Shown in pieces: positions 25,080-57,883 of a DNA stretch of 64,000 nucleotides (the first letter of the stretch is position 1; each line of letters begins with the position of its first letter). The DNA is from Bacteroidetes bacterium ADurb.Bin145 (GTDB taxonomy: Bacteria; Bacteroidota; Bacteroidia; Bacteroidales; VadinHA17), in the NCBI GenBank assembly GCA_002070505.1, contig MWDJ01000003.1, forward strand, positions 14,103 to 78,102. Reading direction: 5' to 3'. The notes under the pieces are model-generated. The model had not been told where the DNA came from. It saw nothing but the letters and a program-made list of their open reading frames with translations, and did not search any database. The position numbers were made by a program, and so were the translations under genes.

Positions 25080-25151
25080 GGTCCTATAGTTCAATGGATA
25101 GAACGGAGGTTTCCTAAACCTTAAATCCAGGTTCGATTCCTGGTGGGACTA
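25080..25151 (+). tRNA. tRNA-Arg (anticodon CCU); integration target of the island
   Basis: Hand-folded: acceptor GGTCCTA/TGGGACT (two G-U pairs), D arm GTTC/GAAC, anticodon stem GAGGT/ACCTT with loop TTCCTAA (CCU), T arm CCAGG-TTCGATT-CCTGG, discriminator A. CCA is not encoded. Confidence 0.9.
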
Positions 25152-25153
25152 CA
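25140..25153 (+). repeat. attL core (direct repeat within tRNA-Arg 3' end)
   Basis: CTGGTGGGACTACA, identical to 57823-57836. Confidence 0.75.
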
Positions 25154-25157
25154 GTTG

Positions 25158-25186
25158 AACCCTGTATACAGTTGATATACAGGGTT
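25158..25186 (+). terminator. island-borne hairpin directly after tRNA-Arg
   Basis: 11-bp perfect stem AACCCTGTATA / TATACAGGGTT with loop CAGTTGA, followed by TTCT. Confidence 0.5.
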
Positions 25187-25193
25187 TTCTGTT

Positions 25194-25242
25194 ATTAACA
25201 ACCAGAAATAGTATAAAATTAACAACCAAAATTAACAACCAG
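25194..25242 (+). repeat. three direct ATTAACAACCAR repeats (putative integrase arm-type sites, left end)
   Basis: ATTAACAACCAG at 25194, ATTAACAACCAA at 25218, ATTAACAACCAG at 25231. The same motif occurs three times at 57725-57760 in the same orientation. Confidence 0.6.
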
Positions 25243-25542
25243 AAAGATAAAAATATTATATTTTTCTCACCCCGACTGATTAAAACAAAATGCCATTGTA
25301 AATCAATTATATACAATGGCATTTTTCTTTGTAGTAGAAAAAGTTGTAGAATAATAATATATCGCTTTTATCTGATTCTCCCACTTCGTCTCCTGCCAAT
25401 GGCTTATTTTCCTTTCATTATCAAATCTTAAACACATACAATGGATTTCACCCATACTATAAGGGTTTTACCAAGTCTTTCTGAGACTTTCATTTAATTG
25501 AGTTTCAATGTAATTTTATGGGTAAACTTAAAACTTGCACTC

Positions 25543-25857
25543 ATGGAAAATCCCTTCGAAATTCTTGACCAAAGATTATCTTCAATCGAAGAAAAACTCG
25601 ACAACCTAATCCAAAGAATCGAGAACCAGAAAGACACTTCTGTTCTCGACCCAACATGGGTAACCACAAAGCAACTCTCTGAACATCTCGGTATTTCAAC
25701 TGCTGCTGTGACTAATATCAGGGGCACAAAAATACCTTATTATAAAATCGGTGGCAGAATCTTATTCAAACGTGAAGAAGTGGACGAATACATCCAGAAA
25801 TCCCGATATATGAATGGTAGAGATAATTTGGATGAGTATTTAAAACGACATCACTGA
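25543..25857 (+). CDS. helix-turn-helix excisionase-family (HTH_17/MerR-like) DNA-binding protein
   Basis: WVTTKQLSEHLGISTAAVTNIRGTKIPYYKIGGRILFKREEVDEYI is the typical Xis/AlpA-like winged HTH. ATG at 25543 is preferred over the track start at 25498. Confidence 0.7.
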   Translation: MENPFEILDQRLSSIEEKLDNLIQRIENQKDTSVLDPTWVTTKQLSEHLGISTAAVTNIRGTKIPYYKIGGRILFKREEVDEYIQKSRYMNGRDNLDEYLKRHH

Positions 25858-25905
25858 AGAGAAATTGAGGAACAGAAGAAATACGAATTTTTAAACTCAA
25901 TTGAA

Positions 25906-26673
25906 ATGGAAGAAAATGATAATTCCCCGCTAAGTCGGGAAGATAAAATATTGTCTGAACTCAAGCAGTTAAAGATGCTGTTTACAGTTCTTTTGGGCAC
26001 GGAAGACTTACCAGTCAAAGAAAAATTCTCAAGAGCAGCCATAACCAAAGCAGCAAGCGAATTCAAAAAAATGCAAGCAGAACGGGGGGAATGGGTGGAG
26101 AACAGTGAAGTAAGTACGATTATTAAACATGCTCCTTACTATCCTGCAAAAATACTTATTGAAGAATTCAAATTCAAAAATTACTTCAAGAGAGGTAGTA
26201 CATATTATTTAAAAAGAAGAGACCTAATAGACCTAAATAAGGAACTGAAGAAAAGAAATATCAATCTTGAAACTTACAGCAATTTATTGCAGGACAGGGA
26301 AAAGTTCCAGAAATATATCGACAATATTTCTCAACCTGAGAGAAGTAAGAAAAGAAGAAGATTTACAATACCTGAAGGACTTGAGAATATATTTTCACGA
26401 CCGTACTCGCCTCCAAATGAGGAATTGGTGAGGAATGAGATTAAGACGTTATGGGAAGAATATGAGAAATATAATTTAAGCGAGTATGTGGATTTATATT
26501 ATAAAAATACTTATGCAGTTTTTAAGTATATATATCATTGGGATAAATACTTAGACCCCAGAACTAAGAAGCAAAGCAAACAGTGGTGTGAAAAATTTAA
26601 ATATGCGAATGAGGCTTTAAAACGAATCTTGGAACATAAAAAGAAGAAGATATTGGGGAAAAATGATTTGTAA
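25906..26673 (+). CDS. hypothetical protein (basic, helical; island-specific)
   Basis: Long ORF next to the excisionase-like gene. No motif recognised. Confidence 0.4.
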   Translation: MEENDNSPLSREDKILSELKQLKMLFTVLLGTEDLPVKEKFSRAAITKAASEFKKMQAERGEWVENSEVSTIIKHAPYYPAKILIEEFKFKNYFKRGSTYYLKRRDLIDLNKELKKRNINLETYSNLLQDREKFQKYIDNISQPERSKKRRRFTIPEGLENIFSRPYSPPNEELVRNEIKTLWEEYEKYNLSEYVDLYYKNTYAVFKYIYHWDKYLDPRTKKQSKQWCEKFKYANEALKRILEHKKKKILGKNDL

Positions 26674-26763: not shown

Positions 26764-28374
26764 TTAATGGTCAACTAATCTTAAACCAATATTAAAAACA
26801 TGAAGTTTCAGATTATTTTCAACTCTCTCCCACAACACCTCTTCATTTTCAATCTTTTTGTAACGCAATAGATAACTTTTTGGATATAATATCTTGGTTG
26901 GTCGAATCCACGCTTCACGTTTTAGTCCCTTCGATTCATCAAGGTATGTTACACGAAAAATGAAATGGTGCACTTGAATGTTGACCATAAAGAATTCATT
27001 TGCTATGTCCTCTGCAATTCTCTTATCCAATTTCTCCACACTTAATAAGTCAGCGAATGCTTTTATACCTTTGTTTACAATGAAATCGATATCTGATGAT
27101 TCAACTTCTGCTATCTCAATCAAAAAACCTTCTGGAATGTCACCATTCTTTATATCAGAGAGTGCATTATCAGGAAGTATTGGACTAAGGTTGCCCTTTA
27201 ATGAAAGCAAAATGGATTTAATAATAAGCCATAATGCCAATTGTTTTGAATTCTGGTCATCGATTGTTAAATCACTTATTTTCTCTCGAAAGCCATCTTT
27301 CTCATCCACCAAAAAACCTTTCGCCTTTTCTTCAAGTTGGGACATCCATGTACCATTACAGTCAGCACAAACCAAATGGCTTGTATAACCATATGAACTT
27401 TCAGTTCCTTTAGAGACTCCGCTTTTCAGTGTTTCTAACAATTTGTCGTCAGGAGTTCGAGCATGAAGAGTACTGGCGAATTTCTTCTCTGGAAAGTAGG
27501 CTCTCATCCACTGTGCAAAGATATGTTCTTGGCTTACCTCGCTTGAACCACAAAAAATGCATTTATTGCTTTCGTGTTGAGGTATAACAATTATCTTCTC
27601 ACCCTTCCCCAATGTACTTACCAAATCAATAATTCTGGTAAATGGCTGTAAATACGTTTTCGGAATCTCGATTTTAAATACAGACTGTTCACTGTCTTGT
27701 TCTTCGCTAAAGGATACTAATCCATCATTGTTTCCTTTTTTCTTGTTCAATATTTTTAATCCCGTTCCACCATATGGATTAAGCGTTTCTGTTATCTCTT
27801 TTAAATACGTGTACCACTCCCGTGGAACTGGCATTTCAGTTGTTTCAATATCTTCAAGCCACAAAAGATACTTATTGTTATTAATTGCAAAACAATAGTA
27901 GCAATCGACCCAATGGAGATTGTTTTTATTCTTTTCATTATAAAACACATACGATTCACAAGGGATATGAACTGAGCCTAAAATCTCCATCAACTGATTA
28001 GGGGATTCAAGGTTACCATGTATCAACCTTCTTGTATTTTCAATAAAATACCCTTCTGTTGTTCCTATTCTAATCTTACATCCATATTTATGGGCGAACA
28101 ATTTAAGCACATCAAGCAAGGGCACATTATGCGTTATTAATTCTGATGGAATCCAATACGCAAATGAGAACAGTATTTCTTTCTTTACAAGTTGTGTGGC
28201 TAACAATAAAAAAGCACACTTACCATTCTTAAATTCCTTTAAATGAAGTGTTACATTATTTTCCAATTTCTGTACAACTGTAGATAATTTAAATGTTTCA
28301 TACACATGAGAATCATCAATATGAAACTTGTTTTTATACACCTGATGATATGCTTCTGTTAATATCAATTCCAT
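26764..28374 (-). CDS. two-domain protein: unknown N-terminal half plus HNH_5-like nuclease motif region
   Basis: CIFCGSSEVSQEHIFAQWM ... VCADCNGTWMSQLEEKAK matches the CxxC..EH / CxxCN pattern of HNH_5-type endonucleases. ATG (MELILTEAY) at 28374 is preferred over 28416. Divergent from hsdM. Confidence 0.5.
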   Translation of the reverse strand: MELILTEAYHQVYKNKFHIDDSHVYETFKLSTVVQKLENNVTLHLKEFKNGKCAFLLLATQLVKKEILFSFAYWIPSELITHNVPLLDVLKLFAHKYGCKIRIGTTEGYFIENTRRLIHGNLESPNQLMEILGSVHIPCESYVFYNEKNKNNLHWVDCYYCFAINNNKYLLWLEDIETTEMPVPREWYTYLKEITETLNPYGGTGLKILNKKKGNNDGLVSFSEEQDSEQSVFKIEIPKTYLQPFTRIIDLVSTLGKGEKIIVIPQHESNKCIFCGSSEVSQEHIFAQWMRAYFPEKKFASTLHARTPDDKLLETLKSGVSKGTESSYGYTSHLVCADCNGTWMSQLEEKAKGFLVDEKDGFREKISDLTIDDQNSKQLALWLIIKSILLSLKGNLSPILPDNALSDIKNGDIPEGFLIEIAEVESSDIDFIVNKGIKAFADLLSVEKLDKRIAEDIANEFFMVNIQVHHFIFRVTYLDESKGLKREAWIRPTKILYPKSYLLRYKKIENEEVLWERVENNLKLHVFNIGLRLVDH

Positions 28375-28566
28375 ACTATCAAAAATAACAAAAAGGTATA
28401 AACTCGTTATAATCAAAAATTAACACATTGCAATAAACAATCAGAATGAATATCTTAGATGCTTATTTTGACTTCCCATTAGAATTCCGTCATGAAGTGT
28501 AGGGTTTGAGGCATTCCTAATTGGGAATCAAATATTTATTTGTTCAACAAAAAGTAAAACGACCTA

Positions 28567-30135
28567 ATGAGCGAAGACCTTAAACGCCAACTGGAACAGC
28601 AACTTTGGAATATAGCCAACACCCTGCGGGGGAAAATGGATGCAGATGAATTCCGTGATTACATTCTCGGCTTCATTTTTTACAAATATTTGTCAGAGAA
28701 AATAGAATTGTATGCCAATGGCATCCTGAAGGAAGACAAAATAAAATATCTGGACATCTCAGAAGATTCAGCCAAAGGTCAGCAGTATCTGGAAGCCATC
28801 AGGGAAGAATCGCTTGAAAAACTGGGGTACTTCCTAAAGCCGTCAGAACTGTTCAGTCAGGTTGCAAAACGTGGTAATGGCAATGGCAAGAACATAAGCA
28901 ACTTCATCATTGAAGACATACAGAAAATCCTCATCAACATACAAAACTCCACGATGGGGACAAGCAGCGAAGAAGATTTCGACCACCTGTTCGAGGATAT
29001 GGATTTGAATAGCACCAAACTGGGTAAGACTGCGGAACAAAGAAATGAAGTGATTGCAAAAGTCCTGTCGCATCTTGATAAAATTGACTTCCAGATAGAA
29101 GATTCAAAAATTGATATACTGGGTGATGCTTATGAATATTTGATTGGACAGTTTGCAAGTGGTGCTGGCAAAAAAGCGGGAGAGTTCTACACCCCTCAAC
29201 AGGCATCAAAAATACTTGCACAGATTGTTACACTGGGTAAAACACGTATTAAATCAGCCTACGACCCGACATGCGGGTCAGGTTCTCTTATCCTTCGGTT
29301 GGGCAGAATTTGTGATGTACTGAAATTTTACGGGCAGGAACTTAACCGCACCACTTACAACCTGTGCCGAATGAATATGATATTGCATGGCGTTCATCAT
29401 ACCAGATTCGATATTAAACTGGAAGATACGTTGGAACACCCGCAACACGAAAAACTGGAAGCAGAGGCAGTTGTGGCGAACCCGCCATTTTCGGCAAAAT
29501 GGAGTGCCAGTCCCCTGTTTATGACTGATGACAGATTCAGTGAATACGGAAAACTTGCGCCTTCTTCCAAGGCAGATTTTGCCTTTGTGCAGCATATGAT
29601 TTACCATCTGGCAGAAAATGGCGTTATGGCTGTTGTAATGCCTCATGGTGTGCTTTTCAGGGGTGCAGCCGAGGGACATATCAGGAAATACCTGATTGAA
29701 GAGAAAAACTATCTGGATACCGTTATCGGACTTCCTGCAAATATTTTCTACGGGACATCCATACCAACATGCATTCTGGTATTTAAGAAGTGCCGTGAAC
29801 ATCCTGATGATATTTTGTTTATTGATGCCAGTCAGCATTTCGAAAAGGTTAAAACACAGAATTATCTGCGTGAAGAGGATGTGGACAGGATAATTGACAC
29901 GTATGCAAAACGCATCTCAGTTGATAAATACAGTAATGTTGCCAGTCTGGATGAGGTTAGAGATAACGATTTTAACTTGAACATACCCCGATATGTTAAC
30001 ACTTTTGAAGAGGAAGAATCCATAGATATTGTTGCTGTTTCCAGTGAACTAAAAACACTGGAAATGGAAATGAAAGACACGGATGAAACCATTGCAGGGT
30101 TCTGCAAAGAACTAAACATACCAACACCGTTTTAA
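28567..30135 (+). CDS. hsdM: type I restriction-modification system, DNA methyltransferase subunit M
   Basis: HsdM N-terminal domain (LWNIANTLRGKMDADEFRDYILGFIFYKYLSE), AdoMet motif DPTCGSGS and catalytic NPPFSAKW. Confidence 0.93.
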   Translation: MSEDLKRQLEQQLWNIANTLRGKMDADEFRDYILGFIFYKYLSEKIELYANGILKEDKIKYLDISEDSAKGQQYLEAIREESLEKLGYFLKPSELFSQVAKRGNGNGKNISNFIIEDIQKILINIQNSTMGTSSEEDFDHLFEDMDLNSTKLGKTAEQRNEVIAKVLSHLDKIDFQIEDSKIDILGDAYEYLIGQFASGAGKKAGEFYTPQQASKILAQIVTLGKTRIKSAYDPTCGSGSLILRLGRICDVLKFYGQELNRTTYNLCRMNMILHGVHHTRFDIKLEDTLEHPQHEKLEAEAVVANPPFSAKWSASPLFMTDDRFSEYGKLAPSSKADFAFVQHMIYHLAENGVMAVVMPHGVLFRGAAEGHIRKYLIEEKNYLDTVIGLPANIFYGTSIPTCILVFKKCREHPDDILFIDASQHFEKVKTQNYLREEDVDRIIDTYAKRISVDKYSNVASLDEVRDNDFNLNIPRYVNTFEEEESIDIVAVSSELKTLEMEMKDTDETIAGFCKELNIPTPF

Positions 30136-30137
30136 TC

Positions 30138-31385
30138 ATGGAAATGCAAAAGAACATGCCGCAATTGCGTTTCCCTGATTTTGAAGGTGAGTGGGAGAAG
30201 AAAAAATTGGGTGAACTATCAATAATAAATCCTACCACTGTTAAACTACCAAACAAATTCATCTATATTGATTTGGAGAGTGTTACTAATGGGCAATTAA
30301 TTAAAGAAGAGGTTGTATTTAAAAACGAAGCACCAAGCCGAGCACAAAGAGTTTTGGAAATAGAAGATATTTTGTTTCAAATGGTACGACCTTACCAAAA
30401 AAACAACCTGTATTTTGACAAAAATGGAGATTATGTTGCTTCAACTGGATATGCTCAAATAAAAACCAAACAAAGTTCCCGATTTTTATATCAGTACCTT
30501 CATTTGCAACAATTTGTTGATGAGGTTATCGAAAGATGTACAGGCACAAGTTATCCTGCTATTAATTCGAAAGATTTAGCAAAAATTAGTGTTAGTTACC
30601 CCACTCTTCCCGAACAACAAAAAATCGCATCTTTTTTCACTGCCATTGACAAAAAGATAACGCAACTCAAGCAAAAGAAAACACTGCTGGAACACTACAA
30701 AAAAGGGGCGATGCAGAAAATATTTTCGCAGCAAGTCAGGTTCAAAGACGATAAAGGGTTCGAGTTTCCGAAGTGGGAGAAAAGTAAGTTCAATCAAATT
30801 TATTCCTTTAGAGTAACAAACTCTTTTTCAAGAGATGACCTGAACTATGAAGAAGGAGATGTAAAGAATCTTCACTATGGAGATATCCACACTAAGTTTA
30901 ATACACTTTTTGACATCACGAAAGAGGAAGTTCCATTTATCAAGCCTGACGTTTCGATAAAAAGAATAAGTTCTGACAATTACTGTAAGACCAGCGACAT
31001 TGTATTTGCTGATGCATCAGAAGACCTTGCTGATGTGGGTAAAAGCATTGAACTGGTTAATCTCAATGATGAGAAAGTTCTCGCTGGTTTGCATACAATT
31101 TTAGCAAGACCCGATGTAACAAAAATTGCTTCTGGATTTGGTGGTTATTTGATGAAGTCGCCTGAAGTTCGTCAACAAATTATGAAAATTGCACAAGGGT
31201 CAAAAATTACGAGCATATCAAGTACAAGGCTTTGCGATATTGAATTGAACACACCATGCCCTGATGAACAAACCAAAATCGCTAATTTCCTATCATCCAT
31301 TGATGTTAAAATAAACCAAACCCGAATGCAGATAGAAAAAGCAGAGGTTTGGAAGAAAGGGTTGATGCAACAAATGTTTGTATAA
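30138..31385 (+). CDS. hsdS: type I R-M specificity subunit S
   Basis: Two target-recognition domains are separated by the conserved central helix LPEQQKIASFFTAIDKKITQLKQKK and a C-terminal repeat (DEQTKIANFLSSIDVKINQ). The gene starts 3 bp after hsdM. Confidence 0.9.
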   Translation: MEMQKNMPQLRFPDFEGEWEKKKLGELSIINPTTVKLPNKFIYIDLESVTNGQLIKEEVVFKNEAPSRAQRVLEIEDILFQMVRPYQKNNLYFDKNGDYVASTGYAQIKTKQSSRFLYQYLHLQQFVDEVIERCTGTSYPAINSKDLAKISVSYPTLPEQQKIASFFTAIDKKITQLKQKKTLLEHYKKGAMQKIFSQQVRFKDDKGFEFPKWEKSKFNQIYSFRVTNSFSRDDLNYEEGDVKNLHYGDIHTKFNTLFDITKEEVPFIKPDVSIKRISSDNYCKTSDIVFADASEDLADVGKSIELVNLNDEKVLAGLHTILARPDVTKIASGFGGYLMKSPEVRQQIMKIAQGSKITSISSTRLCDIELNTPCPDEQTKIANFLSSIDVKINQTRMQIEKAEVWKKGLMQQMFV

Positions 31386-32523
31386 AATAATACTGAACGA
31401 TATGTATCGCATAAACAAAACAAACAATAATGTTACCAAACTTGAACAACGGTTGTTTAAAGAACTGCGAATCAAGGAAAGGGAGCATCTTCAGGAATGG
31501 ATTGCAAAGAATCCTGATATGTTGGGAGAAGAATTATTAATAATTCAAAAAGAATTCAGTGGTTTCAATGACACCAGTGAGCGACTTGACCTTTTAGCCA
31601 TAGACAGGGATGGTGGATTGGTCATAATTGAAAACAAACTTGATGATACAGGTAAAAATGTGGTTTGGCAAGCACTCAAGTATACCTCTTATTGTTCGAC
31701 ACTTACCACAGCACAGATTATCAAAATGTATCAGGAGTATATCGACAAATACGGAAATGGGGAAGATGCAAAAGAAAGTCTGCTTGAATTTCTGGAGTGG
31801 GAAGAAGAAGAACTCTTATTGAATCGAAACGACCAAAGGATTGTTTTTGTTTCAAATAATTTTCGCAAAGAGGTAACCTCTACTGTAATTTGGTTACTAA
31901 AGCACGACATTCAAATCCAATGTTTTAGGGCAATACCTTACAGTATGGGAGACGAGTTGTTTTTACAGATGGAGCAAATTATTCCATTGCCCGAAACAAA
32001 AGAATTTATGATTGATGCACAAGAAAAGGAAAAGGATGAAAAACATAAAAGCAAATCCGTTGAGGAATCCGAAGCACTGCTTATTAAATTTTGGGGACAA
32101 CTGAAACATCATTTAGTAGAGCAGAATATTGATTTTCTTGAAAGAGTTAGTGCGCATCCGAAACATAATATTGGTTTTTGGAAAGGGCATGGCAAGTTCG
32201 CCTTCTGTCTCGGCAGAAGTAATTTCAGAGTTGAACTTTATTTTTCTAATGACCCTGACAAAAAATTTATAGATGCAATGGCAATCCATAAGGATGAAAT
32301 AGAAAATTCATTTGTCGGGAAAATTGTATGGGAAAGATTGGAAAATAAAAGAGCATCACGTATCAAGCACGAAATGACACCCAGCGAATTAGAAAAGTTA
32401 AAGGGACGTTTTAATGATGAGACCTATTGGGAAGAACTAATTGCATGGTACAAATTAGCAATGGTGAAATTCTATGCAACCCTATATCCTGTTTGGGAAA
32501 AAGTTCAGAAGGAAATTTCATAA
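31378..32523 (+). CDS. PD-(D/E)xK-like nuclease domain protein with DUF4268-like C-terminus, embedded in the type I R-M operon
   Basis: ERLDLLAIDRDGGLVIIENKLD gives a D...(D/E)xK arrangement. The C-terminal half (FWGQLKHHL...HNIGFWKG...RVELYF) resembles DUF4268. Overlaps the hsdS end by 8 nt and stops 2 bp before hsdR. Confidence 0.55.
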   Translation: MYKIILNDMYRINKTNNNVTKLEQRLFKELRIKEREHLQEWIAKNPDMLGEELLIIQKEFSGFNDTSERLDLLAIDRDGGLVIIENKLDDTGKNVVWQALKYTSYCSTLTTAQIIKMYQEYIDKYGNGEDAKESLLEFLEWEEEELLLNRNDQRIVFVSNNFRKEVTSTVIWLLKHDIQIQCFRAIPYSMGDELFLQMEQIIPLPETKEFMIDAQEKEKDEKHKSKSVEESEALLIKFWGQLKHHLVEQNIDFLERVSAHPKHNIGFWKGHGKFAFCLGRSNFRVELYFSNDPDKKFIDAMAIHKDEIENSFVGKIVWERLENKRASRIKHEMTPSELEKLKGRFNDETYWEELIAWYKLAMVKFYATLYPVWEKVQKEIS

Positions 32524-32525
32524 CG

Positions 32526-45665: not shown

Positions 45666-45701
45666 AAGTTGAAATTGAGAATGACCTGAAAAAAATAATA
45701 T

Positions 45702-48266: not shown

Positions 48267-48299
48267 TTTTTTATTCCACACTTGTGTTGCTTTAAAAAC

Positions 48300-48390
48300 A
48301 ATGGTTGAACGACCTATTTGAGGCAGTACTCACCTTATTACTTCCTTTAGCACGAGGAAAATGCAGCGAGACAACGAGTACTGCCTCTTT
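48300..48390 (+). ncRNA. unclassified structured element, copy A (strand assignment tentative)
   Basis: Conserved 5' block AATGGYTGAACGACCTATTT. Outer stem GAGGCAGTACTC (48320-48331) / GAGTACTGCCTC (48376-48387). Inner stem TTCCT/AGGAA around AGCACG. Conserved AATGCAGYGAGACAA. T-rich 3' tail. Confidence 0.5.
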
Positions 48391-48443
48391 CTTTTAATAA
48401 AAAACATTTATTTTATTACATTTGATATTAGATATTAAACAAG

Positions 48444-49097: not shown

Positions 49098-49176
49098 TAA
49101 CTTCTTCAGTGAAATTATAACAATTTAAATATTTGTAAATGTGATTGTTGTTAATCAGTTCTAAATATTTTTTATC

Positions 49177-50064: not shown

Positions 50065-50095
50065 CCATGAAAAAAGTTGTAATTAAATAGAAAGC

Positions 50096-50722
50096 ATGAA
50101 CAATAATCAAAATGAAAAAAGTACAGATAAATTGAAACTTATTATTTTAATAATATCATCATCTATATTGTTTGTATTTGCTTGTTCTGCTCAAGAATGG
50201 AATAAATTTACTTGTGATGGAACAGGCAAATGTTCTGGATTGAGGTTTTCAATTAATTATCCAAAAAAATGGACAGTAAAAGATGGGAGCCGACCTCATA
50301 TTATTAAAAATTTCGAATTTGAAGAAGAAAGAGGTTTAGTAACAATGACCATTTATGTCAGAGAACTTGATTACATTCCAACTGAGGAAATGATAAATGA
50401 AACTTATAATAGAGAAACTTTTATTGAAAACTTCAATGGAGTTCAAATCTTGGAATTTAATGACAAGGCAGAAATTGATATGGAGAAATGTATTACTGCC
50501 ACACTGTTTACAAAGATGACAATTTATGACGAAGAAATAATTTCTTTAGTTAAGCCAAGTTTTGTTTTTTATGATAAATATCTACTTCAAGTAAATTTTT
50601 TCATTTTTAGTAATGACCAAAATCGTGAAACTATGAAGGATATGTTAAATAAATACAATCCAATCTTTAATGAGATTATGTATAGTTTGGCTTTATTATC
50701 AAAGTGGGAAAATACTAATTAA
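50096..50722 (+). CDS. secreted hypothetical protein, shares a domain with 51877..52758
   Basis: FSINYPKKWTVKDGSRPHIIKNFEFEE aligns with LKLRPPIGWQIEEGDRPNIVQKFLFKN, giving a shared P..W.....G.RP.I...F.F motif. Confidence 0.4.
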   Translation: MNNNQNEKSTDKLKLIILIISSSILFVFACSAQEWNKFTCDGTGKCSGLRFSINYPKKWTVKDGSRPHIIKNFEFEEERGLVTMTIYVRELDYIPTEEMINETYNRETFIENFNGVQILEFNDKAEIDMEKCITATLFTKMTIYDEEIISLVKPSFVFYDKYLLQVNFFIFSNDQNRETMKDMLNKYNPIFNEIMYSLALLSKWENTN

Positions 50723-50743
50723 AAATCATATAATAAATAACAC

Positions 50744-50950
50744 ATGAATTATAAAAAAATTCTTTTCAAAGTTATTGGAGCAACTATTTTCCTGCTTGGT
50801 GGATTAATCGGTGGTTTTTCCCAGACTGATGGGACATGGCTTTCAAAGAAGCCTTTCCTTTTTTTATTTCTTTCATTATTCATTATGGGCATTGGGATTA
50901 CAGTCTGGAAATCAAGTAAATCGTTAGGAGATTCTGATAAAATTGAATAA
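50744..50950 (+). CDS. small two-TM membrane protein
   Basis: VIGATIFLLGGLIGGF and FLFLFLSLFIMGIGITVW. Confidence 0.3.
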   Translation: MNYKKILFKVIGATIFLLGGLIGGFSQTDGTWLSKKPFLFLFLSLFIMGIGITVWKSSKSLGDSDKIE

Positions 50951-51079
50951 TCAATAAAAGACGGAATCGAGAAACTTAAATTCTTGAAACGATATTGATT
51001 CATTATTTCACTTAATCTGATAACGACACTTATCAAACCACTCCCTCCCATATCACCAACTTCTGAATTTAATAATGCA

Positions 51080-51880
51080 TCAATCATTCCATTTGGCGGC
51101 TACTTCTTCAAAAAGTGCATGTGAACTTTCAATAAATTCGTCCATAGTTTTGGCTTCATAAGTTGCAATTGCAGGAAACATTAATTTCCCTTCATTTTCA
51201 GGCGAATTTGCTAAATCATCCAGATTTAGGACATCATGTGCCAACTCATGGTAAATAAGATAATACCGCAGAGGCTTTTTAAACGCATTCCATGTTGAGG
51301 GGTTAATATATATTTCAATCTTATCGTCATCATTTATGCCGCAAGAAATGCCGTGAATATGAGTAGCATCGGTTATGTGGTCGAATTTTGCGAATTTTAT
51401 TATACTGGTAGTTGGCTTTTTCGGGAATATTCCATAAACAGCAATATCTCGATAAAATTTCTCAACATAAAAATTGAAATCCACATCTGCTTCATAAGCA
51501 CTTGATTTAATCTCTTGATAAAAATTGTATTGATTTTGTCGTTTGATAAAAAAGAAGACTATACACAGAGCAAGTATTGAAACAAATGCAATTAAAGCAC
51601 CTCGTTTCAGTTTTTTTCGATTTTTCGAGGGAGATAACTGAATATTCATCTCCTTGGTAATTTCCTCTTGCTTTTCAACTATTTCTTGATTGCTTTTTAG
51701 TTGGGGTGGCAGTGAGTTAGTGATGGCTTTCAACTCATCTAAGTCAGACAATTTTGTCCAATTCTCTAATCCAAAGTACCATACCTTTGTTTCCCTTGTA
51801 ATTTTCTGTTGTCTCAGTTCTTCAAATGTAAAGGGACCGTGCTTATCAACTCCATCAGTATAGAAGTACTTTTTCATCAA
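51080..51880 (-). CDS. GYF_2 (DUF4339) domain / TM / HExxH metallopeptidase-like protein
   Basis: KKYFYTDGVDKHGPFTFEELRQQKITRETKVWYFGLENWTKL (GYF_2), TM segment ALIAFVSILALCIVFFFI, and YHELAHDV (HExxH). Confidence 0.55.
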   Translation of the reverse strand: MMKKYFYTDGVDKHGPFTFEELRQQKITRETKVWYFGLENWTKLSDLDELKAITNSLPPQLKSNQEIVEKQEEITKEMNIQLSPSKNRKKLKRGALIAFVSILALCIVFFFIKRQNQYNFYQEIKSSAYEADVDFNFYVEKFYRDIAVYGIFPKKPTTSIIKFAKFDHITDATHIHGISCGINDDDKIEIYINPSTWNAFKKPLRYYLIYHELAHDVLNLDDLANSPENEGKLMFPAIATYEAKTMDEFIESSHALFEEVAAKWND

Positions 51881-52758
51881 TAGTCATATTGTTCTGGGAA
51901 AATTACTGAATAGGTAATTAAATCGTAAAGTTTTTCTAAAGCAGTAAACTCATTATTATCTAAACCACCACACTGAAGATATACAATTTTATCTTCGAAA
52001 AAAACCATCCAACATTTTTGTTTTATGCTCATTTTAATTCCTAACCGCTCCATTTCTCCTCTCATTGTGAATTCAAGAGATGGATACTTGTCAACACTCA
52101 CGACTCTATAATTAAGTAATTGTGGGTTGGTCAGCAAAGAACTCGCTTCAGATAAAAACTCATTGACATATTCATCATCAGATAGAATCTCACGAATCTC
52201 ATTTCTTGAAAAAAACATGATGTTATCTTTCACCATAATCATATAATTATTGTTCTTAAACAGGAACTTTTGCACAATATTTGGTCTGTCCCCTTCTTCA
52301 ATCTGCCATCCGATAGGTGGTCTGAGTTTTAAATTGACCCCTTTTGATTTTGGATGTCCATCTATGCTTATGTATTCTCCTAAATTGAAATTTAAATCGA
52401 CAAGTTCGTATGAATTAATACTTATTTTTTCACGAAGGCGATTCTCATAAAAATATTGGTATTCAACGTTTATGTCATTATTAAAATACATTTCAGAATA
52501 TCCTGATTTTTTAATATTTTCTATTAAATCGATTTTCATATTATTTGGAGCATACCAATCCTCGTTTACAAGATATTGGTAAACTAAAGTTCTGCCCAAA
52601 GCGTAACAACCCTTTACATTAATTCCATTTCCAAAATCCATGCCTTGCAATTCATTATTAATTTTTTGTGCCAATACTTTTATGTCATTATCTGATAATG
52701 ATTGTGGGTAACTAATCAAATTGAAGTAGAATAGTATGACGGGCAGGATTAATTTCAT
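51877..52758 (-). CDS. secreted hypothetical protein (paralogous domain to 50096..50722)
   Basis: Signal peptide and the shared P..W.....G.RP.I motif. A 4-bp ATGA overlap couples it to the downstream gene. Confidence 0.4.
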   Translation of the reverse strand: MKLILPVILFYFNLISYPQSLSDNDIKVLAQKINNELQGMDFGNGINVKGCYALGRTLVYQYLVNEDWYAPNNMKIDLIENIKKSGYSEMYFNNDINVEYQYFYENRLREKISINSYELVDLNFNLGEYISIDGHPKSKGVNLKLRPPIGWQIEEGDRPNIVQKFLFKNNNYMIMVKDNIMFFSRNEIREILSDDEYVNEFLSEASSLLTNPQLLNYRVVSVDKYPSLEFTMRGEMERLGIKMSIKQKCWMVFFEDKIVYLQCGGLDNNEFTALEKLYDLITYSVIFPEQYDY

Positions 52759-52776
52759 GAAGTATTTATTTTAACA

Positions 52777-53373
52777 TTAAATCCAAGGACTTCTTCCGTA
52801 TTTATTGCTGATACCTTCTTCTCCTTTCCCGAAAATCATTAAAATTGGGAAAAATGGTACTATCTGCCACCAACCATTAAACCCCATATCGTGACAGCGT
52901 TTAGCACCTTGCGCAAAAAAGAACCAATATAAGGGTATATAAGCAAGGAACAGCCATGATAAATCATAATTTTCTTCTATTAACACATTGATGATTAAAA
53001 TAAAGAATAATAGGATAATAAAACTTACTATATATTCCAATCGCCTTATTCGACCCTTGAATGAAAACGGATTAGATAACATACCTTGCCTTTTAAAACT
53101 TTCAGAACCCGTATTGTCATCGGTGACATTTACGTCACTAATTTTGTAATCCGATTGGGCATTTTCGCTTTTCATATCCAATTTTTCGGAAATAATAGGT
53201 GGTGGAATTAATTTAAGAATCTCTTCGAATTCTCCTATTTCTTTTGCTTGCTTCCAATCCTCAAGACCCTCAAACCATATTAAGGTATCTTTAGTTATGT
53301 TTTCATTTTTTAGTTCTTCGAAAGAAAATGGACCGAATTTGTCTTTGCCGTCCGAATAAAAATATTTTTTCAT
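52777..53373 (-). CDS. GYF_2 (DUF4339) plus DUF805 membrane protein
   Basis: KKYFYSDGKDKFGPFSFEELKNENITKDTLIWFEGLEDWKQAKEI (GYF_2). FSFKGRIRRLEYIVSF ... AKRCHDMGFNGWW ... NKYGRSP (DUF805 blocks). Confidence 0.65.
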   Translation of the reverse strand: MKKYFYSDGKDKFGPFSFEELKNENITKDTLIWFEGLEDWKQAKEIGEFEEILKLIPPPIISEKLDMKSENAQSDYKISDVNVTDDNTGSESFKRQGMLSNPFSFKGRIRRLEYIVSFIILLFFILIINVLIEENYDLSWLFLAYIPLYWFFFAQGAKRCHDMGFNGWWQIVPFFPILMIFGKGEEGISNKYGRSPWI

Positions 53374-53553
53374 GGTGTTTAAGTTTTACATATAACCAAT
53401 TAGTTCATAAACGGACAAATTATTTTCCGTACTCCAGAAAAATATTATCAAAAATATTTTTAAATATGATTTTTACTCATCTAAAGTTATACCTAATTGC
53501 TGGTAGAACCAAATTATTTTGTTTTTCACCTAATATTGTACTACTCTTAAAGG

Positions 53554-53640
53554 AATGGCTGAACGACCTATTTGAGGCAGTCCTTCATACCCACAGCAAG
53601 AGGGTTAATGCAGTGAGACAATTCGATAGGACTGCCTCTT
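53554..53640 (+). ncRNA. unclassified structured element, copy B (strand assignment tentative)
   Basis: Same 5' block (AATGGCTGAACGACCTATTT). Outer stem GAGGCAGTCCT (53574-53584) / AGGACTGCCTC (53628-53638). Inner stem ACCC/GGGT around AGCAAGA. Conserved AATGCAGTGAGACAA. Confidence 0.5.
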
Positions 53641-53889
53641 ACTTTATATCACAATCTTCATCACTCTTTCTACATGGGAGTTGTTAACTCGCCAAAATGG
53701 CGAGTCAAATTTTCATGAACTTACCTCTTCCCAAAAATGGGGAGTCTGATAATCTGTAGTTTGACTACACCATTATTAATCTCACCCCAAAGTATTTGAT
53801 TCGACTATTTGGATAAGTTGGTCAGGGTTTCAACGACAGCCAGTTACCAGAAATAGCCGTCATCCTCATATTCCCAAATTAGTATAAGA

Positions 53890-54279
53890 TTACTCCATCT
53901 CTTGTTCCCTGTCCAGTTCCAGCAATTCATTATCAGTATCTGGTTGATAATCCTTCGCCAAATCCAAGACATCTTTCCAGTTTACAATGAACAAGTCAGG
54001 CTGAGTATCGTGGATGTCCAGAGTGACCGTTGCAAGTTTGTTCGTTTCGGGGTCTATAAATTCCAATTGAATCTTACCATCCTTATAATCAAGGTCATGC
54101 AGTTTGTACAAACCGAATCCGTTACTGTTTACCACCAGATATCTTTCATCCTCAACAAATCCAAGATTGGGTTTTTCTCGGAAAAGAAAAATTTGAAGAT
54201 GCTTATAATCTCCTGATTCCAATTCACGTATCAGGTCATCAAAAGATGCAGGATAGTTTTTATTTGTGTCTTTTTGCAT
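53890..54279 (-). CDS. hypothetical acidic protein
   Basis: 129-aa ORF. No motif recognised. Confidence 0.35.
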   Translation of the reverse strand: MQKDTNKNYPASFDDLIRELESGDYKHLQIFLFREKPNLGFVEDERYLVVNSNGFGLYKLHDLDYKDGKIQLEFIDPETNKLATVTLDIHDTQPDLFIVNWKDVLDLAKDYQPDTDNELLELDREQEME

Positions 54280-54543
54280 ATTTATGTCATATTTAATATT
54301 TTCGATTTATTTATGAACGCATTTTTCGCTACTCATGTAAGTATTAAAGATGCTACAAACACACCTTTCTAATAAATACTATTAAATTGAAAAAATGTCC
54401 TATGACCGTCATTAGAGAGTTCATACTTTCTATTAGAGGCAGAATTTGTAACGGGACAGTTCGGTAGTACTACCTATATCGTTTATATTTCTCAAACCTT
54501 TCATTATCTTTGAGATAATTGAAACTTGTAAAAGGTAAATGAA

Positions 54544-55434
54544 ATGAATGATAATAAGATAGATAAGAAGGAGATAATTGAAGCAATTGAAGAATCAGGA
54601 TATTTAATTGAACAGAGAGTTGTACCTGTTTTTAATTCTTTTGGATTTTCTGTGAATTCAAATGAAATTTATACCGATTTTGAGACAAAAAAAACAAGGG
54701 AGATTGATATTGTTGCTTATGACCATCATCTTACAAATAATGATACTCTTATAGTTCCTAAACTATTAGTCGAATGTGAAAATAACAAGCAGCCTGTCGT
54801 TTTTTTTAAAGATACTCCATTAAACCCATTCATGTTTCATCTTGATGCAAAGATTTCTGGGATACCAAAATTCATTATAACATCCAAAGGAACAAGAAAG
54901 TCTTTTAATGATTTCATGAATTTGGAGATGAAACATCATTATTGTTGGGAGAGTTTTTCAACTCAATATTGTTCTTTTCAGATAACCGAAAAACGTGGTA
55001 TTAAAAAATGGATGGCATTGCATCCAGAAAACCAGCATAACACATTTGAAAATCTTATTAAATGTTTGGACTATAAAATAAATGAGCATGAGTCTTCTAT
55101 TCAGATAGTATCAGATAAGTATTCGGAAATCAACTTATACTATCCGATTATTGTATTTCAGGGCGATTTGTATGAATCTTATTTTAAAGATGGAGTTACT
55201 CATCTTGACGAAATAAATCATATTAAATACAGGAAGAAAGTCCCCAAAAAGGATTATGTAGATACTTACCACTTTGATATTGTAACTGAAAGATATCTCG
55301 ATGAATTCTTAAAATTGATGGATAAAGAAATTAAAACTATAGTATCAAAATTTGTAGGGATGCAACCAGATATTGAAAGAACTCTGAAAACCATTATATC
55401 TGAAAATCAGAATCCTAAGCGTAATAAACTTTAA
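54544..55434 (+). CDS. hypothetical protein with possible PD-(D/E)xK (restriction-endonuclease-like) N-terminal domain
   Basis: GYLIEQRV...TREIDIVAYD...KLLVECENNKQPVVFF gives an E / D / ExK-like spacing. Assignment rests on pattern only. Confidence 0.35.
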   Translation: MNDNKIDKKEIIEAIEESGYLIEQRVVPVFNSFGFSVNSNEIYTDFETKKTREIDIVAYDHHLTNNDTLIVPKLLVECENNKQPVVFFKDTPLNPFMFHLDAKISGIPKFIITSKGTRKSFNDFMNLEMKHHYCWESFSTQYCSFQITEKRGIKKWMALHPENQHNTFENLIKCLDYKINEHESSIQIVSDKYSEINLYYPIIVFQGDLYESYFKDGVTHLDEINHIKYRKKVPKKDYVDTYHFDIVTERYLDEFLKLMDKEIKTIVSKFVGMQPDIERTLKTIISENQNPKRNKL

Positions 55435-55479
55435 GAACCCGCATTAACACCATTCAAATACTTATTAAGCGAGTGATTC

Positions 55480-55773
55480 TCAGTTTAAAAAGTATTTCAT
55501 GGTATAGATTTCAATGAAATTCCCACTTTCTCTGTGTAATCCGTTTAAATACATTAAACACATTTCATCAAGTAATCGTCCCAATTCTTTCAAGTCGCTG
55601 GCACAAGCCTGAATTAAACCATCATTAACGGTGATTATGGAGTACAAATGTGGATTGCCGTTGGCATCTTGGCTTCTTATGAGATTGCCATAAAAACATT
55701 TGCCATCTGCTTCTGCCATGAACATTTCGGTAATCTGGATTCCATTATCCTTATTCTTATCTATTTTACTCAT
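55480..55773 (-). CDS. small hypothetical protein
   Basis: 97-aa ORF. No motif recognised. Confidence 0.3.
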   Translation of the reverse strand: MSKIDKNKDNGIQITEMFMAEADGKCFYGNLIRSQDANGNPHLYSIITVNDGLIQACASDLKELGRLLDEMCLMYLNGLHRESGNFIEIYTMKYFLN

Positions 55774-56041
55774 TTATTGTAATTTATCCTCCTAAACGAC
55801 TAATACTATAATGTCCATGACCCTATCCCCGCCTATGGGATGCCCCCCCTCTACCTGCTCCATAGGTAACGTGGTGCTACGTAAAGTGCTCATTTATAAG
55901 CATATGATAATATAAATCCTAATTTACTTATCTAAGTATTAATATCAGTTTGGCTACATTTTTTTTGAAAAAATTTCCATTACAGCCATATGATTTTTTA
56001 TAAAAATTTATAAAATATTATAAATTAAGAAATTATTAAAA

Positions 56042-57676
56042 TCACTTATTAAAGTCTTTAATTAGTTTTTGAATCACTTGTTTCTTTTGTTCAAGATTGA
56101 GTCTATTTTTATAATACTTTAGAATCTTTACATCAGTATGTCCAGTGAATTGAATTATTAATTCGTCTGCTAATCCTAAGTTCGCTAAATAATTTATAAA
56201 TGTTTTTCTGGCTGTAAAAGGAGCAAATACCTCATGTAATTTATATTCTATAACATTCTTCTTGGAATTAATTCTTGTGTTCGGTTCTGAAATTATCCGA
56301 TTCCATTTAAAATGTTTTGCAACTTCTTTCAATTGTTCCCGATATGTTGATATATTAAGAAATTCAGGCAACCCTTCAGGATATCTTTTTAAAACATCTT
56401 TAACTTCTATCAAGATTGGATTTTTCGAAATCTTTTTTGATTTACTACGGTAAAAACCTACGTAGGTATTTTCAAACCTTAAATTACCACTATATAACTC
56501 ACTTGGACGTAATCCACCAGCAAACATCTGGATAATATACATGTCAGTTGCAAGTTGCATTTTGGGGTCTTTGAATGAAGCAGTAAGAAGTTGTTCGATT
56601 TCTTCATATTCCAAGGTAAATTCAATTTTTGTGTAACTATCTCTGTTTAAAGACCTGCTAAGAAAATCTGAAGCATTTATATGATTGGTATTTACTGCTG
56701 TTTGAGGTATCAGTCCTACTGTTTGAAGAATATTAATATAATGTTTCAGCATCTTCACAATTTTCTGGAATGAAGCAATCTTAAAGTATTCTCTGGAAGC
56801 ATTTGTAAATGATTTCTTCTTTTCGAAAATATTAAATGGGGAATACCCTTTGAAATGAATCAGTGGATATCCTTTCTTAACTTTAAATTTCAAAAATTCC
56901 TCAACCCATTTTAAATTGAATTTATTAACTGAATTGCTTACTAAATCTCCATTCAAAATATAATCGGCAAGGTGAAAAATCAGGGATTGGTATGAATCTG
57001 CAATAAATGGGTCATTATTCTTAGGATTTTTTGACCAACAATAACCGAATACTTCAATAAGGTTGTTTTTATCAAATTTACCCTGAGCATACCTTTCATC
57101 CAGAGTCAATGACTGAGTAAGTTTTTTATCCTTTTCAATCTGAATTTCAATACTAATAGAGTCTTTTATATTATCTATTTCTTCATCTGTAATTTCTCCT
57201 TGTTCACTTATCTTTTCTTCAATTGCTTTTTCAATGCGTTTAATTTCGTCACTCTGAAAAGAATTTTCTTCTTCTGAAAAACTTATTGTATTCAAAAACT
57301 TGTTCCACGATGTAACTTCTGAATCTAATGCCTCTTCCTTTTGAATATCATACAACTTATTATTAATATCATCTACCGTAAAATCTACTCCTTCAGAAAT
57401 TTTGTCTACCAGTATCTTCTTGATTTTTGTTTCAATATTAAATAACTTCAATCTCTCGGTAGTGGGGGGTTCTGATTTCAATTTTTCATATTGCGAATCT
57501 GTTACCAAATAAATATTATTGAACTCATCTCTAATTGTTACTTCGAACCGTTTCAATTCATTGAATTTTTTGCCTGACATATACCCAATCTTTGCTAAAA
57601 CCTTCAATTGGCTACTCCCATCCTGTCTTTTATAACTAACACGAAATAAATTAGTCTTTATGATAGTGTTTTTCAT
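56042..57676 (-). CDS. int: tyrosine-type site-specific integrase with long N-terminal arm-binding/linker region
   Basis: C-terminal catalytic domain: GGLRPSELY (Arg I), FTARKTFINYLANLG (Arg II region), TGHTDVKILKYY (His...Tyr nucleophile). It is the last gene before attR. Confidence 0.88.
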   Translation of the reverse strand: MKNTIIKTNLFRVSYKRQDGSSQLKVLAKIGYMSGKKFNELKRFEVTIRDEFNNIYLVTDSQYEKLKSEPPTTERLKLFNIETKIKKILVDKISEGVDFTVDDINNKLYDIQKEEALDSEVTSWNKFLNTISFSEEENSFQSDEIKRIEKAIEEKISEQGEITDEEIDNIKDSISIEIQIEKDKKLTQSLTLDERYAQGKFDKNNLIEVFGYCWSKNPKNNDPFIADSYQSLIFHLADYILNGDLVSNSVNKFNLKWVEEFLKFKVKKGYPLIHFKGYSPFNIFEKKKSFTNASREYFKIASFQKIVKMLKHYINILQTVGLIPQTAVNTNHINASDFLSRSLNRDSYTKIEFTLEYEEIEQLLTASFKDPKMQLATDMYIIQMFAGGLRPSELYSGNLRFENTYVGFYRSKSKKISKNPILIEVKDVLKRYPEGLPEFLNISTYREQLKEVAKHFKWNRIISEPNTRINSKKNVIEYKLHEVFAPFTARKTFINYLANLGLADELIIQFTGHTDVKILKYYKNRLNLEQKKQVIQKLIKDFNK

Positions 57677-57724
57677 AATTACAAATCATGATAATATTCC
57701 CACAAAGATAATATTTCGAGTCCG

Positions 57725-57760
57725 ATTAACAACCAGAATTAACAACTAATTAACAACCAG
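57725..57760 (+). repeat. three direct ATTAACAACYAR repeats (putative arm-type sites, right end)
   Basis: ATTAACAACCAG at 57725, ATTAACAACTAA at 57738, ATTAACAACCAG at 57749. They lie between the integrase start and attR. Confidence 0.6.
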
Positions 57761-57822
57761 CATTGTTGCTAAATATCAGCAATATACAGAGGCTCAATGT
57801 TTTAAATCCAGTTATATGGGTT

Positions 57823-57836
57823 CTGGTGGGACTACA
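57823..57836 (+). repeat. attR core (direct repeat of tRNA-Arg 3' end)
   Basis: CTGGTGGGACTACA. The preceding TTAAATCCAG..GGGTT is a degenerate copy of the tRNA variable/T-arm region (57802-57822). Confidence 0.75.
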
Positions 57837-57883
57837 AAAAAGAGTGAGAGTGTGAGCGAGAGCGAGTACTCTCACTCTTTTTT
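57836..57883. terminator. strong hairpin abutting attR (probable original tRNA-Arg terminator)
   Basis: AAAAAAGAGTGAGAG (57836-57850) / CTCTCACTCTTTTTT (57869-57883) is a perfect 15-bp inverted repeat with an 18-nt loop, flanked by an A-run and a T-run. Confidence 0.6.

Follow-up and report, generated by a model that had tools for sequence, protein, structure and literature searches.

A probable 32.7-kb integrative genomic island with mainly defence cargo at a tRNA-Arg(CCU) gene of an uncultured Bacteroidales bacterium

The 64,000-nt stretch of DNA analyzed here (the window, to which all positions refer) comes from "Bacteroidetes bacterium ADurb.Bin145", a metagenome-assembled genome of an uncultured Bacteroidales bacterium from an anaerobic digester. 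Its segment 25154-57836 is very probably a 32.7-kb integrative genomic island that is inserted at a tRNA-Arg(CCU) gene and carries mainly defence cargo. An earlier note, made from the sequence alone, had proposed such an island from a 14-bp attachment (att) repeat, sets of three repeats inside each end, an integrase gene, an excisionase (Xis)-like gene and a tRNA terminator displaced to the far end; what it described was found in the sequence, and its interpretation gained support. The observation that carries the present assignment is a presence/absence polymorphism: some contigs have the island and others lack it, and what differs is exactly the unit bounded by two copies of the 14-bp core. 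Empty sites were sought by looking up the exact CvpA protein, which is encoded just left of the tRNA gene, in metagenome contigs, and the protein was found on many contigs of the same organism. The site was empty in two of them, L001 (ENA ERZ27257459) and L007 (JGI 3300028635), in which the SPOR-domain gene of the right flank lies beside the tRNA gene and the hairpin found at 57836-57883 in the window follows tRNA-Arg directly. This is the empty attB that the earlier note had predicted, and it bears out the displacement of the terminator as well. In L001 the sequence immediately 3' of the tRNA is AAAAAGAGTGAGAGTGTGAGCGAGAGCGAGTACTCTCACTCTTTTTT, and the attB junction reads GGTGGGACTACAAAAAAGAGTGAG. 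BLAST alignment of L001 with the window gave 100% identity over 14259-25153 (10.9 kb) and 57823-64000 (6.2 kb), and the left- and right-flank alignments share exactly the 14-bp core in L001. The flanks of L007 likewise match at 100%, with the same 14-bp overlap. The empty site thus fixes the island as 32,669 bp plus one core copy.

The occupied form was present in seven other contigs among the matches listed, at 99.9-100% identity, and the identical integrase was located at the same site and beside the same right-hand flank in all ten places among the matches listed. The ENA analysis accessions of the two forms are numerically close (occupied, ERZ27257436 and ERZ27257483; empty, ERZ27257459), and JGI 3300010355 is a further source of these contigs. 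Given that the flanks of empty and occupied sites are 100% identical over 17 kb, the event that separates them must be very recent. A tandem repeat between cvpA and tRNA-Arg (24874-24923; period 16 or 24, approximately 2-3 copies, consensus ACGGCGTTAAGGCATT) is chromosomal, because the empty-site contig also has it.

The att repeat itself, CTGGTGGGACTACA, proved to be exact at the 3' end of the tRNA gene and at 57823-57836, just as had been claimed, and these are its only two occurrences in the window. Allowing up to two mismatches added a single, unrelated site at 10454. Tandem islands and internal att sites were rejected on the grounds that no third copy of the core, with two mismatches or fewer, is present within the island. 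The tRNA gene is intact when the site is occupied and is identical to that of the empty-site contig L001. The degenerate copy of the tRNA variable/T-arm region that had been described before attR was also recognized: a 10-nt block of the tRNA, TTAAATCCAG (25121-25130), recurs at 57802-57811, and is followed by 11 divergent nt. A profile of GC content and codon usage, which the earlier note had put forward as a check, distinguishes the island from its flanks and shifts at both boundaries. The GC content is 0.331 in the island versus 0.409 and 0.392 in the flanks, and GC at third codon positions (GC3) is 0.305 versus 0.394. In codon usage, the island lies at a distance of 0.081 from the flanks, compared with 0.033 in a control of one flank versus the other.

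Two hairpins lie at the ends of the island, one behind the tRNA gene and one next to attR. The hairpin abutting attR had been described with a 15-bp stem; it is present, and its stem folds to 18 bp (16 Watson-Crick and 2 G-U pairs, 57836-57853 with 57866-57883) at -26.8 kcal/mol, with A6/U6 flanks. The hairpin that the island was said to supply in its place was found at 25157-25187 (-19.6 kcal/mol, z = -5.4). It starts 4 nt past the tRNA in the integrated state. The left ends of two foreign contigs (L027 and L028) have a conserved version of it, in which the top of the stem shows a compensatory change. It is likely that this island-borne hairpin is a replacement tRNA terminator in the integrated state, although transcription termination by either hairpin is a prediction from the fold. 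A host hairpin and a T run follow the core in eight of eight elements, namely the window and seven relatives described below. Since all seven related right ends strand a host hairpin, the displaced terminator is a general property of this element family. Two observations concern hairpins near such ends. Just past the displaced terminator, at 57884-57910, CTCGCTCCCACTCTCACACTC could pair with GAGTGAGAGTGTGAGCGAG, the 5' arm and loop of the hairpin, to which it is complementary, and the alternative hairpin so formed would be about equally stable (-27.6 kcal/mol). In the relative L026, outside the att core at about 9800-9860, there is a hairpin GCCCTGTAT...ATACAGGGC that resembles the left-end hairpin of the window and is followed by GTGTCAA direct repeats; a second element in tandem may have its left end here.

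At the right end, the integrase pointed out in the earlier note was identified as a tyrosine recombinase by Pfam, by structural comparison and by its catalytic residues. In an alignment of 19 homologues, R390, K412 and Y522 are invariant, and at least 90% of the sequences share R490 and H513. The AlphaFold2 (AF2) model of the 544-amino acid (aa) protein (pLDDT 87) begins with a three-stranded beta sheet (residues 5-47) and ends with a catalytic domain (residues 355-544), and a long helical region lies between them. Its Foldseek matches, which involve the core-binding and catalytic domains, are to Tn1549 Int (E = 7e-7), XerH, lambda Int and Cre. No NCBIfam integrase model matched, and the generic Phage_integrase model of Pfam matched only weakly. 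A word-indexed search yielded 42 homologues, and an exhaustive profile search of 1.84 billion representative proteins yielded 37 clusters at 50% identity with E <= 1e-30. We consider these proteins to represent a small uncharacterised clade of long integrases that is distinct from the NBU type. No relatives were identified in 50,697 phage records, in IMG/VR or among PLSDB plasmids, and the lack of a match in PLSDB led us to discard a plasmid origin. The same searches speak to whether the island could be a prophage remnant or a phage satellite. A tRNA target, an integrase with an excisionase, arm-type sites and helix-turn-helix (HTH) genes of the Cro/CI type are all phage-like. Nevertheless, the island lacks genes for capsid, terminase, portal, tail or lysis proteins, the PHROG matches are to integrase, HTH and RNase H only, and the integrase has no phage or IMG/VR relatives. 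We therefore rejected a phage origin, which we judge to be extremely unlikely.

At the left end, the Xis-like HTH gene of the earlier note was matched to the excisionase-family model TIGR01764 ("excise") at 31.4 bits versus a cutoff of 28.8, which establishes domain membership; the encoded HTH_17 protein also has a Pfam E value of 3.3e-11 and PHROG matches to HTH and excisionase families. This gene, on the attL side, and int, on the attR side, lie at opposite ends of the island and both read inward. The HTH_17 gene is followed by a gene for a conserved 255-aa protein whose homologues always adjoin an HTH_17 gene in L029-L032. The 255-aa protein had no match in Pfam, NCBIfam or PHROGs, and its AF2 model (pLDDT 79) had no significant match in the PDB and a weak similarity to winged-helix proteins; it is possibly a winged-helix DNA-binding protein, as judged from this model. 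Upstream of the Xis-like gene, the region 25264-25345 aligns with sequences upstream of the HTH_17 genes in L029 (2100-2240) and L030 (9480-9620). Because this region is shared by elements whose integrases are only 35-45% identical to that of the window, the module of Xis and the 245-aa protein (as the partner is in L029) and the module of Int and att appear to recombine independently.

Between the core and these genes lie the short repeats that we interpret as predicted integrase arm-type sites in a fixed intasome geometry, an interpretation with good indirect support. Three plus three repeats in the same orientation had been claimed. Six copies, all on the + strand, are indeed present, and the only correction concerns the middle copy on the right, which starts at 57738 rather than 57737. 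The sequence ATTAACAACCAG is exact at 25194-25205, 25231-25242, 57725-57736 and 57749-57760 and has one mismatch at 25218-25229, whereas the sixth copy, ATTAACAACTAA, at 57738-57749, has two. Five repeats with one mismatch or fewer compare with a chance expectation of 0.47. None of 100 shuffles reached the six matches of the search, one of which was an unrelated minus-strand site at 53940.

We compared the right arm with the integrase-proximal ends of seven relatives (Table 1). The closest, L025, has another host flank, and its alignment with the window breaks off precisely at 57836. In the window and in six of the seven relatives, the start of the last repeat is 73-76 bp away from the core; in L029 the distance is 62 bp. 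The repeats span 24 bp, either as steps of 13 and 11 bp (14 and 10 in L035) or as one 24-bp step. The cores of the relatives with 35-64% identical integrases are tRNA-like and differ from that of the window. The type of repeat follows the integrase: ATTAACAACC accompanies integrases of 60-100% identity, ATTAGCAAC those of 35-42%, and AAATCTGCCACA is found in L029. The last of these contigs is informative in that its HTH_17 and 245-aa proteins are 78-80% identical to those of the window, yet it has no ATTAACAACC repeats, which indicates that the repeats go with Int and not with the Xis module. On the left side, the first repeat of L027 and L028 is 39-40 nt past the core, with the next at +24 and +13, as in the window; both contigs were retrieved by a gapped pattern that required the repeats, so that only the hairpin and the spacing constitute independent evidence. 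L027 lies on an intact tRNA-Arg(CCT). L028 (1.2 kb) has at 238-340 a core-like CGGTGGGACTACA, the conserved hairpin and three ATTAACAA(C/T)C repeats, which no tRNA precedes. An attP junction, a secondary site of integration and a decayed tRNA are all conceivable here, and the contig does not extend far enough to include an integrase.

Table 1. Integrase-proximal ends of seven related elements
Contig	Integrase identity to window	Repeats	Core
L025	88%	three ATTAACAACC	identical, CTGGTGGGACTACA
L024	62%	ATTAACAACCA, ATTAACAACTA, ATTCGCAACCAG	GTCGGGACTACA
L026	61%	ATTAACAACCA, ATTAACAACTA, ATTCACAACCAG	GTCGGGACTAC
L011	64%	two copies of ATTAACAAC	CCTACGGACTGCA (inferred)
L034	42%	ATTAGCAACCA twice	CCCGTCCGGACCGCCA
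L035	35%	ATTAGCAACTA, ATCAGCAA, ATTAGCAACTA	CCCGTCCGGACCGCA
L029	35-45%, frameshifted	AAATCTGCCACA three times	CCCGTCCGCACCGCG

The comparison, in which two or three repeats are kept at set distances while their sequence co-varies with the integrase, supports the reading as arm-type sites. It also bears on another explanation of the repeats, as operators for a transcription factor at the int and xis promoters and not as components of an intasome. The right set is 49-84 bp ahead of the int start codon, the left set precedes the xis-like gene and overlaps, in its third repeat, a sigma-70-like match, and several HTH proteins are encoded on the island, all of which would be in keeping with an operator function. 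Such a function would not, however, account for the fixed distances at which repeats stand on either side of the core in every element examined, nor for a repeat sequence that co-varies with the integrase and not with the HTH_17/245-aa pair, as L029 illustrates. An exclusive operator role is consequently improbable in our view. The two roles are compatible, as Int bound at arm sites can also autoregulate.

Several points weigh against the interpretation of the segment as a mobile island with these att sites. The attP 30-mer TATGGGTTCTGGTGGGACTACAGTTGAACC was not found in metagenome_contigs or viral_contigs, a negative that is weak because the metagenome collection apparently lacks the island altogether; a gapped attL pattern with which the window agrees yielded two foreign contigs and nothing else from that collection. 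Ongoing mobility is read solely from the presence/absence polymorphism, because the exact integrase is known at one site and in one host background. The integrase is very divergent, scoring only 34.6 bits in Pfam, and its HxxR box is not conserved at the first His. Arm-site binding, the position of crossover and excisionase function are all predictions from sequence, and the retrieval of L027 and L028 by their repeats belongs with these points. A related consideration is whether the island integrated once and is now effectively fixed, with the empty contigs representing the ancestral state in co-existing strains. The presence of the exact integrase at a single site and flank context in the 23 contigs read, and the failure to find attP, are what would be seen in that case. 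Conversely, the identity of the flanks over 17 kb indicates a very recent event, the int and xis genes are intact, and the relative with an 88% identical integrase (L025) uses the same core in another genome, based on which the element family is active now or was so recently. We regard fixation as possible, though not probable, and it bears on present activity alone, not on the identity of the element.

If the island is mobile as proposed, its circular form would carry an attP of about 500 bp from which int and xis diverge, in the order int promoter, three ATTAACAACC repeats, 62 bp, the pseudo-T-arm with the 14-bp core, the hairpin, three repeats and the xis promoter. The 544-aa integrase would bind the arm repeats through its N-terminal beta-sheet domain and the core through its core-binding and catalytic domains, and strands would be exchanged within the 14-bp identity with attB. 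Integration would rebuild the 3' end of the tRNA from element DNA and place the element's hairpin and T-rich tail behind it, leaving the native terminator stranded at attR. Excision would require Int and the HTH_17 protein, perhaps together with its 255-aa partner. As the island has no transfer genes of its own, its horizontal spread would depend on a helper, transformation or transduction.

Table 2. Features of the island and its attachment sites in the window
Feature	Position	Strand	Evidence or details
tRNA-Arg(CCU), integration target	25080..25152	+	ARAGORN; Rfam 25080-25151, 67.1 bits
attL core CTGGTGGGACTACA	25140..25153	+	3' T-stem strand, 3' acceptor strand and 1-2 further nt
Island-borne hairpin and T-rich tail TTTTCTGTT	25157..25195	+	stem-loop 25157-25187; terminator-like call
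Three left-arm repeats ATTAACAACC(A/G)	25194..25242	+	starts 25194, 25218, 25231; spacing 24 and 13
Conserved region upstream of Xis-like gene	25264..25345	+	TTCTCACCCCGACTG, hairpin with 22-bp arms 25282-25330, GTAGTAnAAAAAGTnGTA direct repeats
Excisionase-family HTH_17 protein, putative recombination directionality factor	25498..25857	+	119 aa from TTG; 104 aa from ATG 25543
Conserved 255-aa partner of HTH_17 protein	25906..26673	+	86 homologues
550-aa protein, treated as cargo	26764..28416	-	missing after the HTH_17/245-aa pair in L029
Type I restriction-modification operon	28567..35378	+	Pfam, TIGR00497, TIGR00348, PADLOC
669-aa protein, 170-aa HTH_3 regulator and 98-aa HTH-like protein	35729..38670		669-aa +; HTH_3 37893-38405 -; 98-aa 38374-38670 -
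Small serine recombinase, resolvase/invertase type	38976..39551	+	Pfam Resolvase E = 2.8e-36; NCBIfam all below cutoffs
Low-GC cargo: RNase H-domain protein (39704-40531) and six further ORFs	39704..44460	.	GC3 0.17-0.30
SAM-I/IV riboswitch aptamer	44871..44963	+	Rfam RF01725, 59.4 bits vs gathering 41.1, E = 1.8e-9
Three-gene cassette: 80 aa, 127 aa, 247-aa FGase-family (PF05013)	45028..46445	+	Pfam
Further cargo	46602..55773	.	TPR 46602-48050 -; GYF_2 51080-51880 and 52777-53373 -; other ORFs
544-aa tyrosine integrase	56042..57676	-	Pfam Phage_integrase PF00589, 34.6 bits vs cutoff 27.1
Three right-arm repeats	57725..57760	+	57725-57736, 57738-57749 (ATTAACAACTAA), 57749-57760
Degenerate tRNA variable/T-arm copy, element-borne	57802..57822	+	TTAAATCCAG, then 11 divergent nt
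attR core CTGGTGGGACTACA	57823..57836	+	exact 14-mer search
Native terminator-like hairpin of chromosomal tRNA-Arg, displaced 32.7 kb	57836..57883	+	fold; L001, L007

The cargo of the island (Table 2) begins with a 550-aa protein and is dominated on the left by a type I restriction-modification (RM) operon. The operon consists of hsdM (28567-30135), hsdS (30138-31385), an embedded DUF4268/PDC-S11 gene (31378-32523) and hsdR (32427-35378), and it received scores above cutoff for TIGR00497 (453.7 bits) and TIGR00348 (478.9 bits) as well as a PADLOC assignment to PDC-S11 (E = 1.7e-132). The RM system is complete, as hsdM, hsdS and hsdR are intact and Methylase_S has two target-recognition stretches. 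In one occupied contig, L006, a 10-bp insertion, AAAATATTTT, at about window position 30684 splits hsdS into open reading frames (ORFs) of 208 aa and 224 aa, and the specificity gene is therefore inactivated in part of the population. Neither the 550-aa protein nor the 669-aa protein beyond the operon had sequence matches in Pfam, NCBIfam, PADLOC, PHROGs or the PDB. The relatives carry a HATPase_c_3 protein of approximately 610-680 aa together with an HTH_3 gene, adjacent in L024 and L026 and nearby in L034, and no BLAST similarity to the 669-aa protein of the window was detected in L024 and L026.

Resolvases like the serine recombinase of the window also occur in the related islands L025, L026 and L034. 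In L026 and L034 there are HTH_3-family genes nearby, with an ORF of about 105-114 aa beside the resolvase, whereas the resolvase of L025 is alone. Multimer resolution, inversion and the capture of a second module are candidates for its role. An invertible segment or shufflon near the serine recombinase or hsdS was considered and discarded, since no convincing inverted repeats were present and the split of hsdS in L006 is a simple 10-bp insertion. A step in GC content occurs near 39.6 kb, where the serine recombinase is located: GC3 is 0.36 in the left 14 kb of the island and 0.26 in the right 18 kb, and the codon-usage distance between the two halves is 0.083. As the halves differ from each other as much as the island differs from the chromosome, we consider the island to be a mosaic. 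On its right side, a 49-nt direct repeat, 82% identical, at 48282-48330 and 53536-53584 lies upstream, on the minus strand, of the TPR and GYF_2/DUF805 genes, and may represent a shared promoter or leader.

Within the AT-rich cargo, an S-adenosylmethionine (SAM) riboswitch was identified 65 nt upstream of the three-gene cassette, which it would be predicted to gate. Neither the riboswitch nor the mosaic structure figured in the earlier note. Riboswitch and cassette are also found together in L036-L038, in another mobile context, where the FGase-family protein is 65% identical and the leader about 90% identical to those of the window. The riboswitch copy in L036 scores 59.3 bits and has a compensatory change in P4 (GAC/GUC to GGC/GCC). 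The 5' strand of P1 has a potential pairing partner in a conserved CTTGATGT at about 44982-44990, which suggests an expression platform. A more distant FGase homologue is encoded, with no riboswitch, beside an EcoRII/Vsr/Dcm system.

In line with the earlier note's claim that conjugation and mobilisation genes are absent, no relaxase, coupling protein, type IV secretion system (T4SS), replication or phage structural genes were detected with Pfam, NCBIfam, PHROGs and PADLOC, the relaxase and mobilisation genes having been sought in ORFs of at least 97 aa. An integrative and conjugative element would have genes for a T4SS, a coupling protein and a relaxase, none of which was detected, and an integrative mobilizable element (IME) is set apart by a relaxase and/or oriT of its own; with no relaxase found, the island does not qualify as one. 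It is nonetheless conceivable that the island is an NBU1-like IME whose relaxase, oriT and mobilisation proteins are too divergent to be recognized (for example, the 255-aa, 550-aa or 669-aa protein). About 25 island proteins have no family assignment, the 255-aa protein belongs to the backbone as a conserved partner of the Xis-like gene, and the Bacteroides IMEs NBU1 and NBU2 likewise target the 3' ends of tRNA genes (PMC5704250). We hold this to be unlikely, given that Pfam, NCBIfam and PHROGs gave no signal for MobP or any other relaxase, a primase or a coupling protein, and that the 255-aa protein, as modelled with AF2, has no counterpart among relaxase folds. Moreover, the similarity between the window and the related islands beyond the integrase is limited to RM subunits, the resolvase and two small ORFs beside int.

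The cargo of the related islands includes type I, type III and Eco57I-like RM systems, AbiEii, SLFN/AlbA_2, Multi_ubiq, ThiF and BubE. In L029, genes of the Multi_ubiq, DUF6791, ThiF and BubE families occur with AbiEii (4630-6393 and 12578-13359). In L034, a HATPase_c_3 gene is inserted in a type I RM system and SLFN/AlbA_2 is also present (14873-20899), and L035 has T5orf172/ResIII with an Eco57I-like methylase (2536-6550). Thus, the integrase clade repeatedly carries RM and other defence cargo. Taken at its widest, the interpretation would make the ~545-aa integrases an undescribed tRNA-targeting clade, so far of Bacteroidales-type genomes and unassigned metagenome contigs, with a rigid intasome geometry and the role of a dedicated shuttle for anti-phage cargo, and would make the riboswitch cassette a candidate defence or counter-defence unit that is switched by cellular SAM. 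We view this combined proposal as a long shot. A hypothetical trigger for such a cassette could be the depletion of SAM by phage SAM lyases.

The value of the locus lies in a base-resolved island of an uncultured digester bacterium for which occupied and empty sites are both available and attL, attR and attB are defined. An integrase with a known 14-bp target could also serve as a site-specific integration tool for Bacteroidales. The general picture of genomic islands is unchanged by these results, and the riboswitch-gated cassette is the one part that might lead somewhere new.

Among known systems, NBU1 and NBU2 of Bacteroides are the nearest analogues in function, together with the Riemerella island discussed below. 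The NBUs resemble the island in phylum, in having a tyrosine integrase, in targeting a tRNA 3' end and in their short common core. From the work of Shoemaker, Salyers and Gardner, NBU1 reportedly has a 14-bp core flanked by direct-repeat binding sites for its integrase. The NBUs differ from the island in their size of 10-12 kb and in having a MobP relaxase and oriT, whereas the island is 32.7 kb and no relaxase was found in it; furthermore, the integrase of the island is 544 aa with a long helical insertion, and its target is tRNA-Arg(CCU). NBU1 and NBU2, which use IntN1, are directed to the 3' ends of tRNA-Leu or tRNA-Ser and need extra element-encoded factors for excision (PMC5704250). The 10K island of Riemerella anatipestifer lies beside tRNA-Arg between 53-bp direct repeats, and its own integrase both integrates and excises it (PMC6764341). 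It is similar in being a Bacteroidota island at tRNA-Arg that is bounded by direct repeats and has no conjugation genes. In contrast, it is 10 kb long and has an IntN1_C-like integrase that works without an excisionase, while the present island, at 32.7 kb, combines a 14-bp core and arm repeats with an excisionase-family gene and an integrase of another clade. The resemblance to lambda Int and to the Int proteins of Tn916/Tn1549 is in the predicted fold, the small N-terminal beta-sheet domain of the model and the direct repeats on both arms. The differences are the identity of only 12-16%, the ~250 extra helical residues between the N-terminal and catalytic domains, and the arrangement of the six repeats, which are unidirectional with a fixed 13/11/24-bp spacing; heterobivalent binding is predicted here. 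With tRNA-associated defence islands, the present one shares a type I RM system and a PADLOC candidate gene as cargo, and it differs from them in that about half of its cargo has no recognisable defence gene. A non-conjugative, tRNA-integrated genomic island with defence cargo is a known kind of element, represented here with an uncharacterised integrase clade; the carrier backbone of a 545-aa integrase, an HTH_17 protein and a 245-aa protein has not previously been described.

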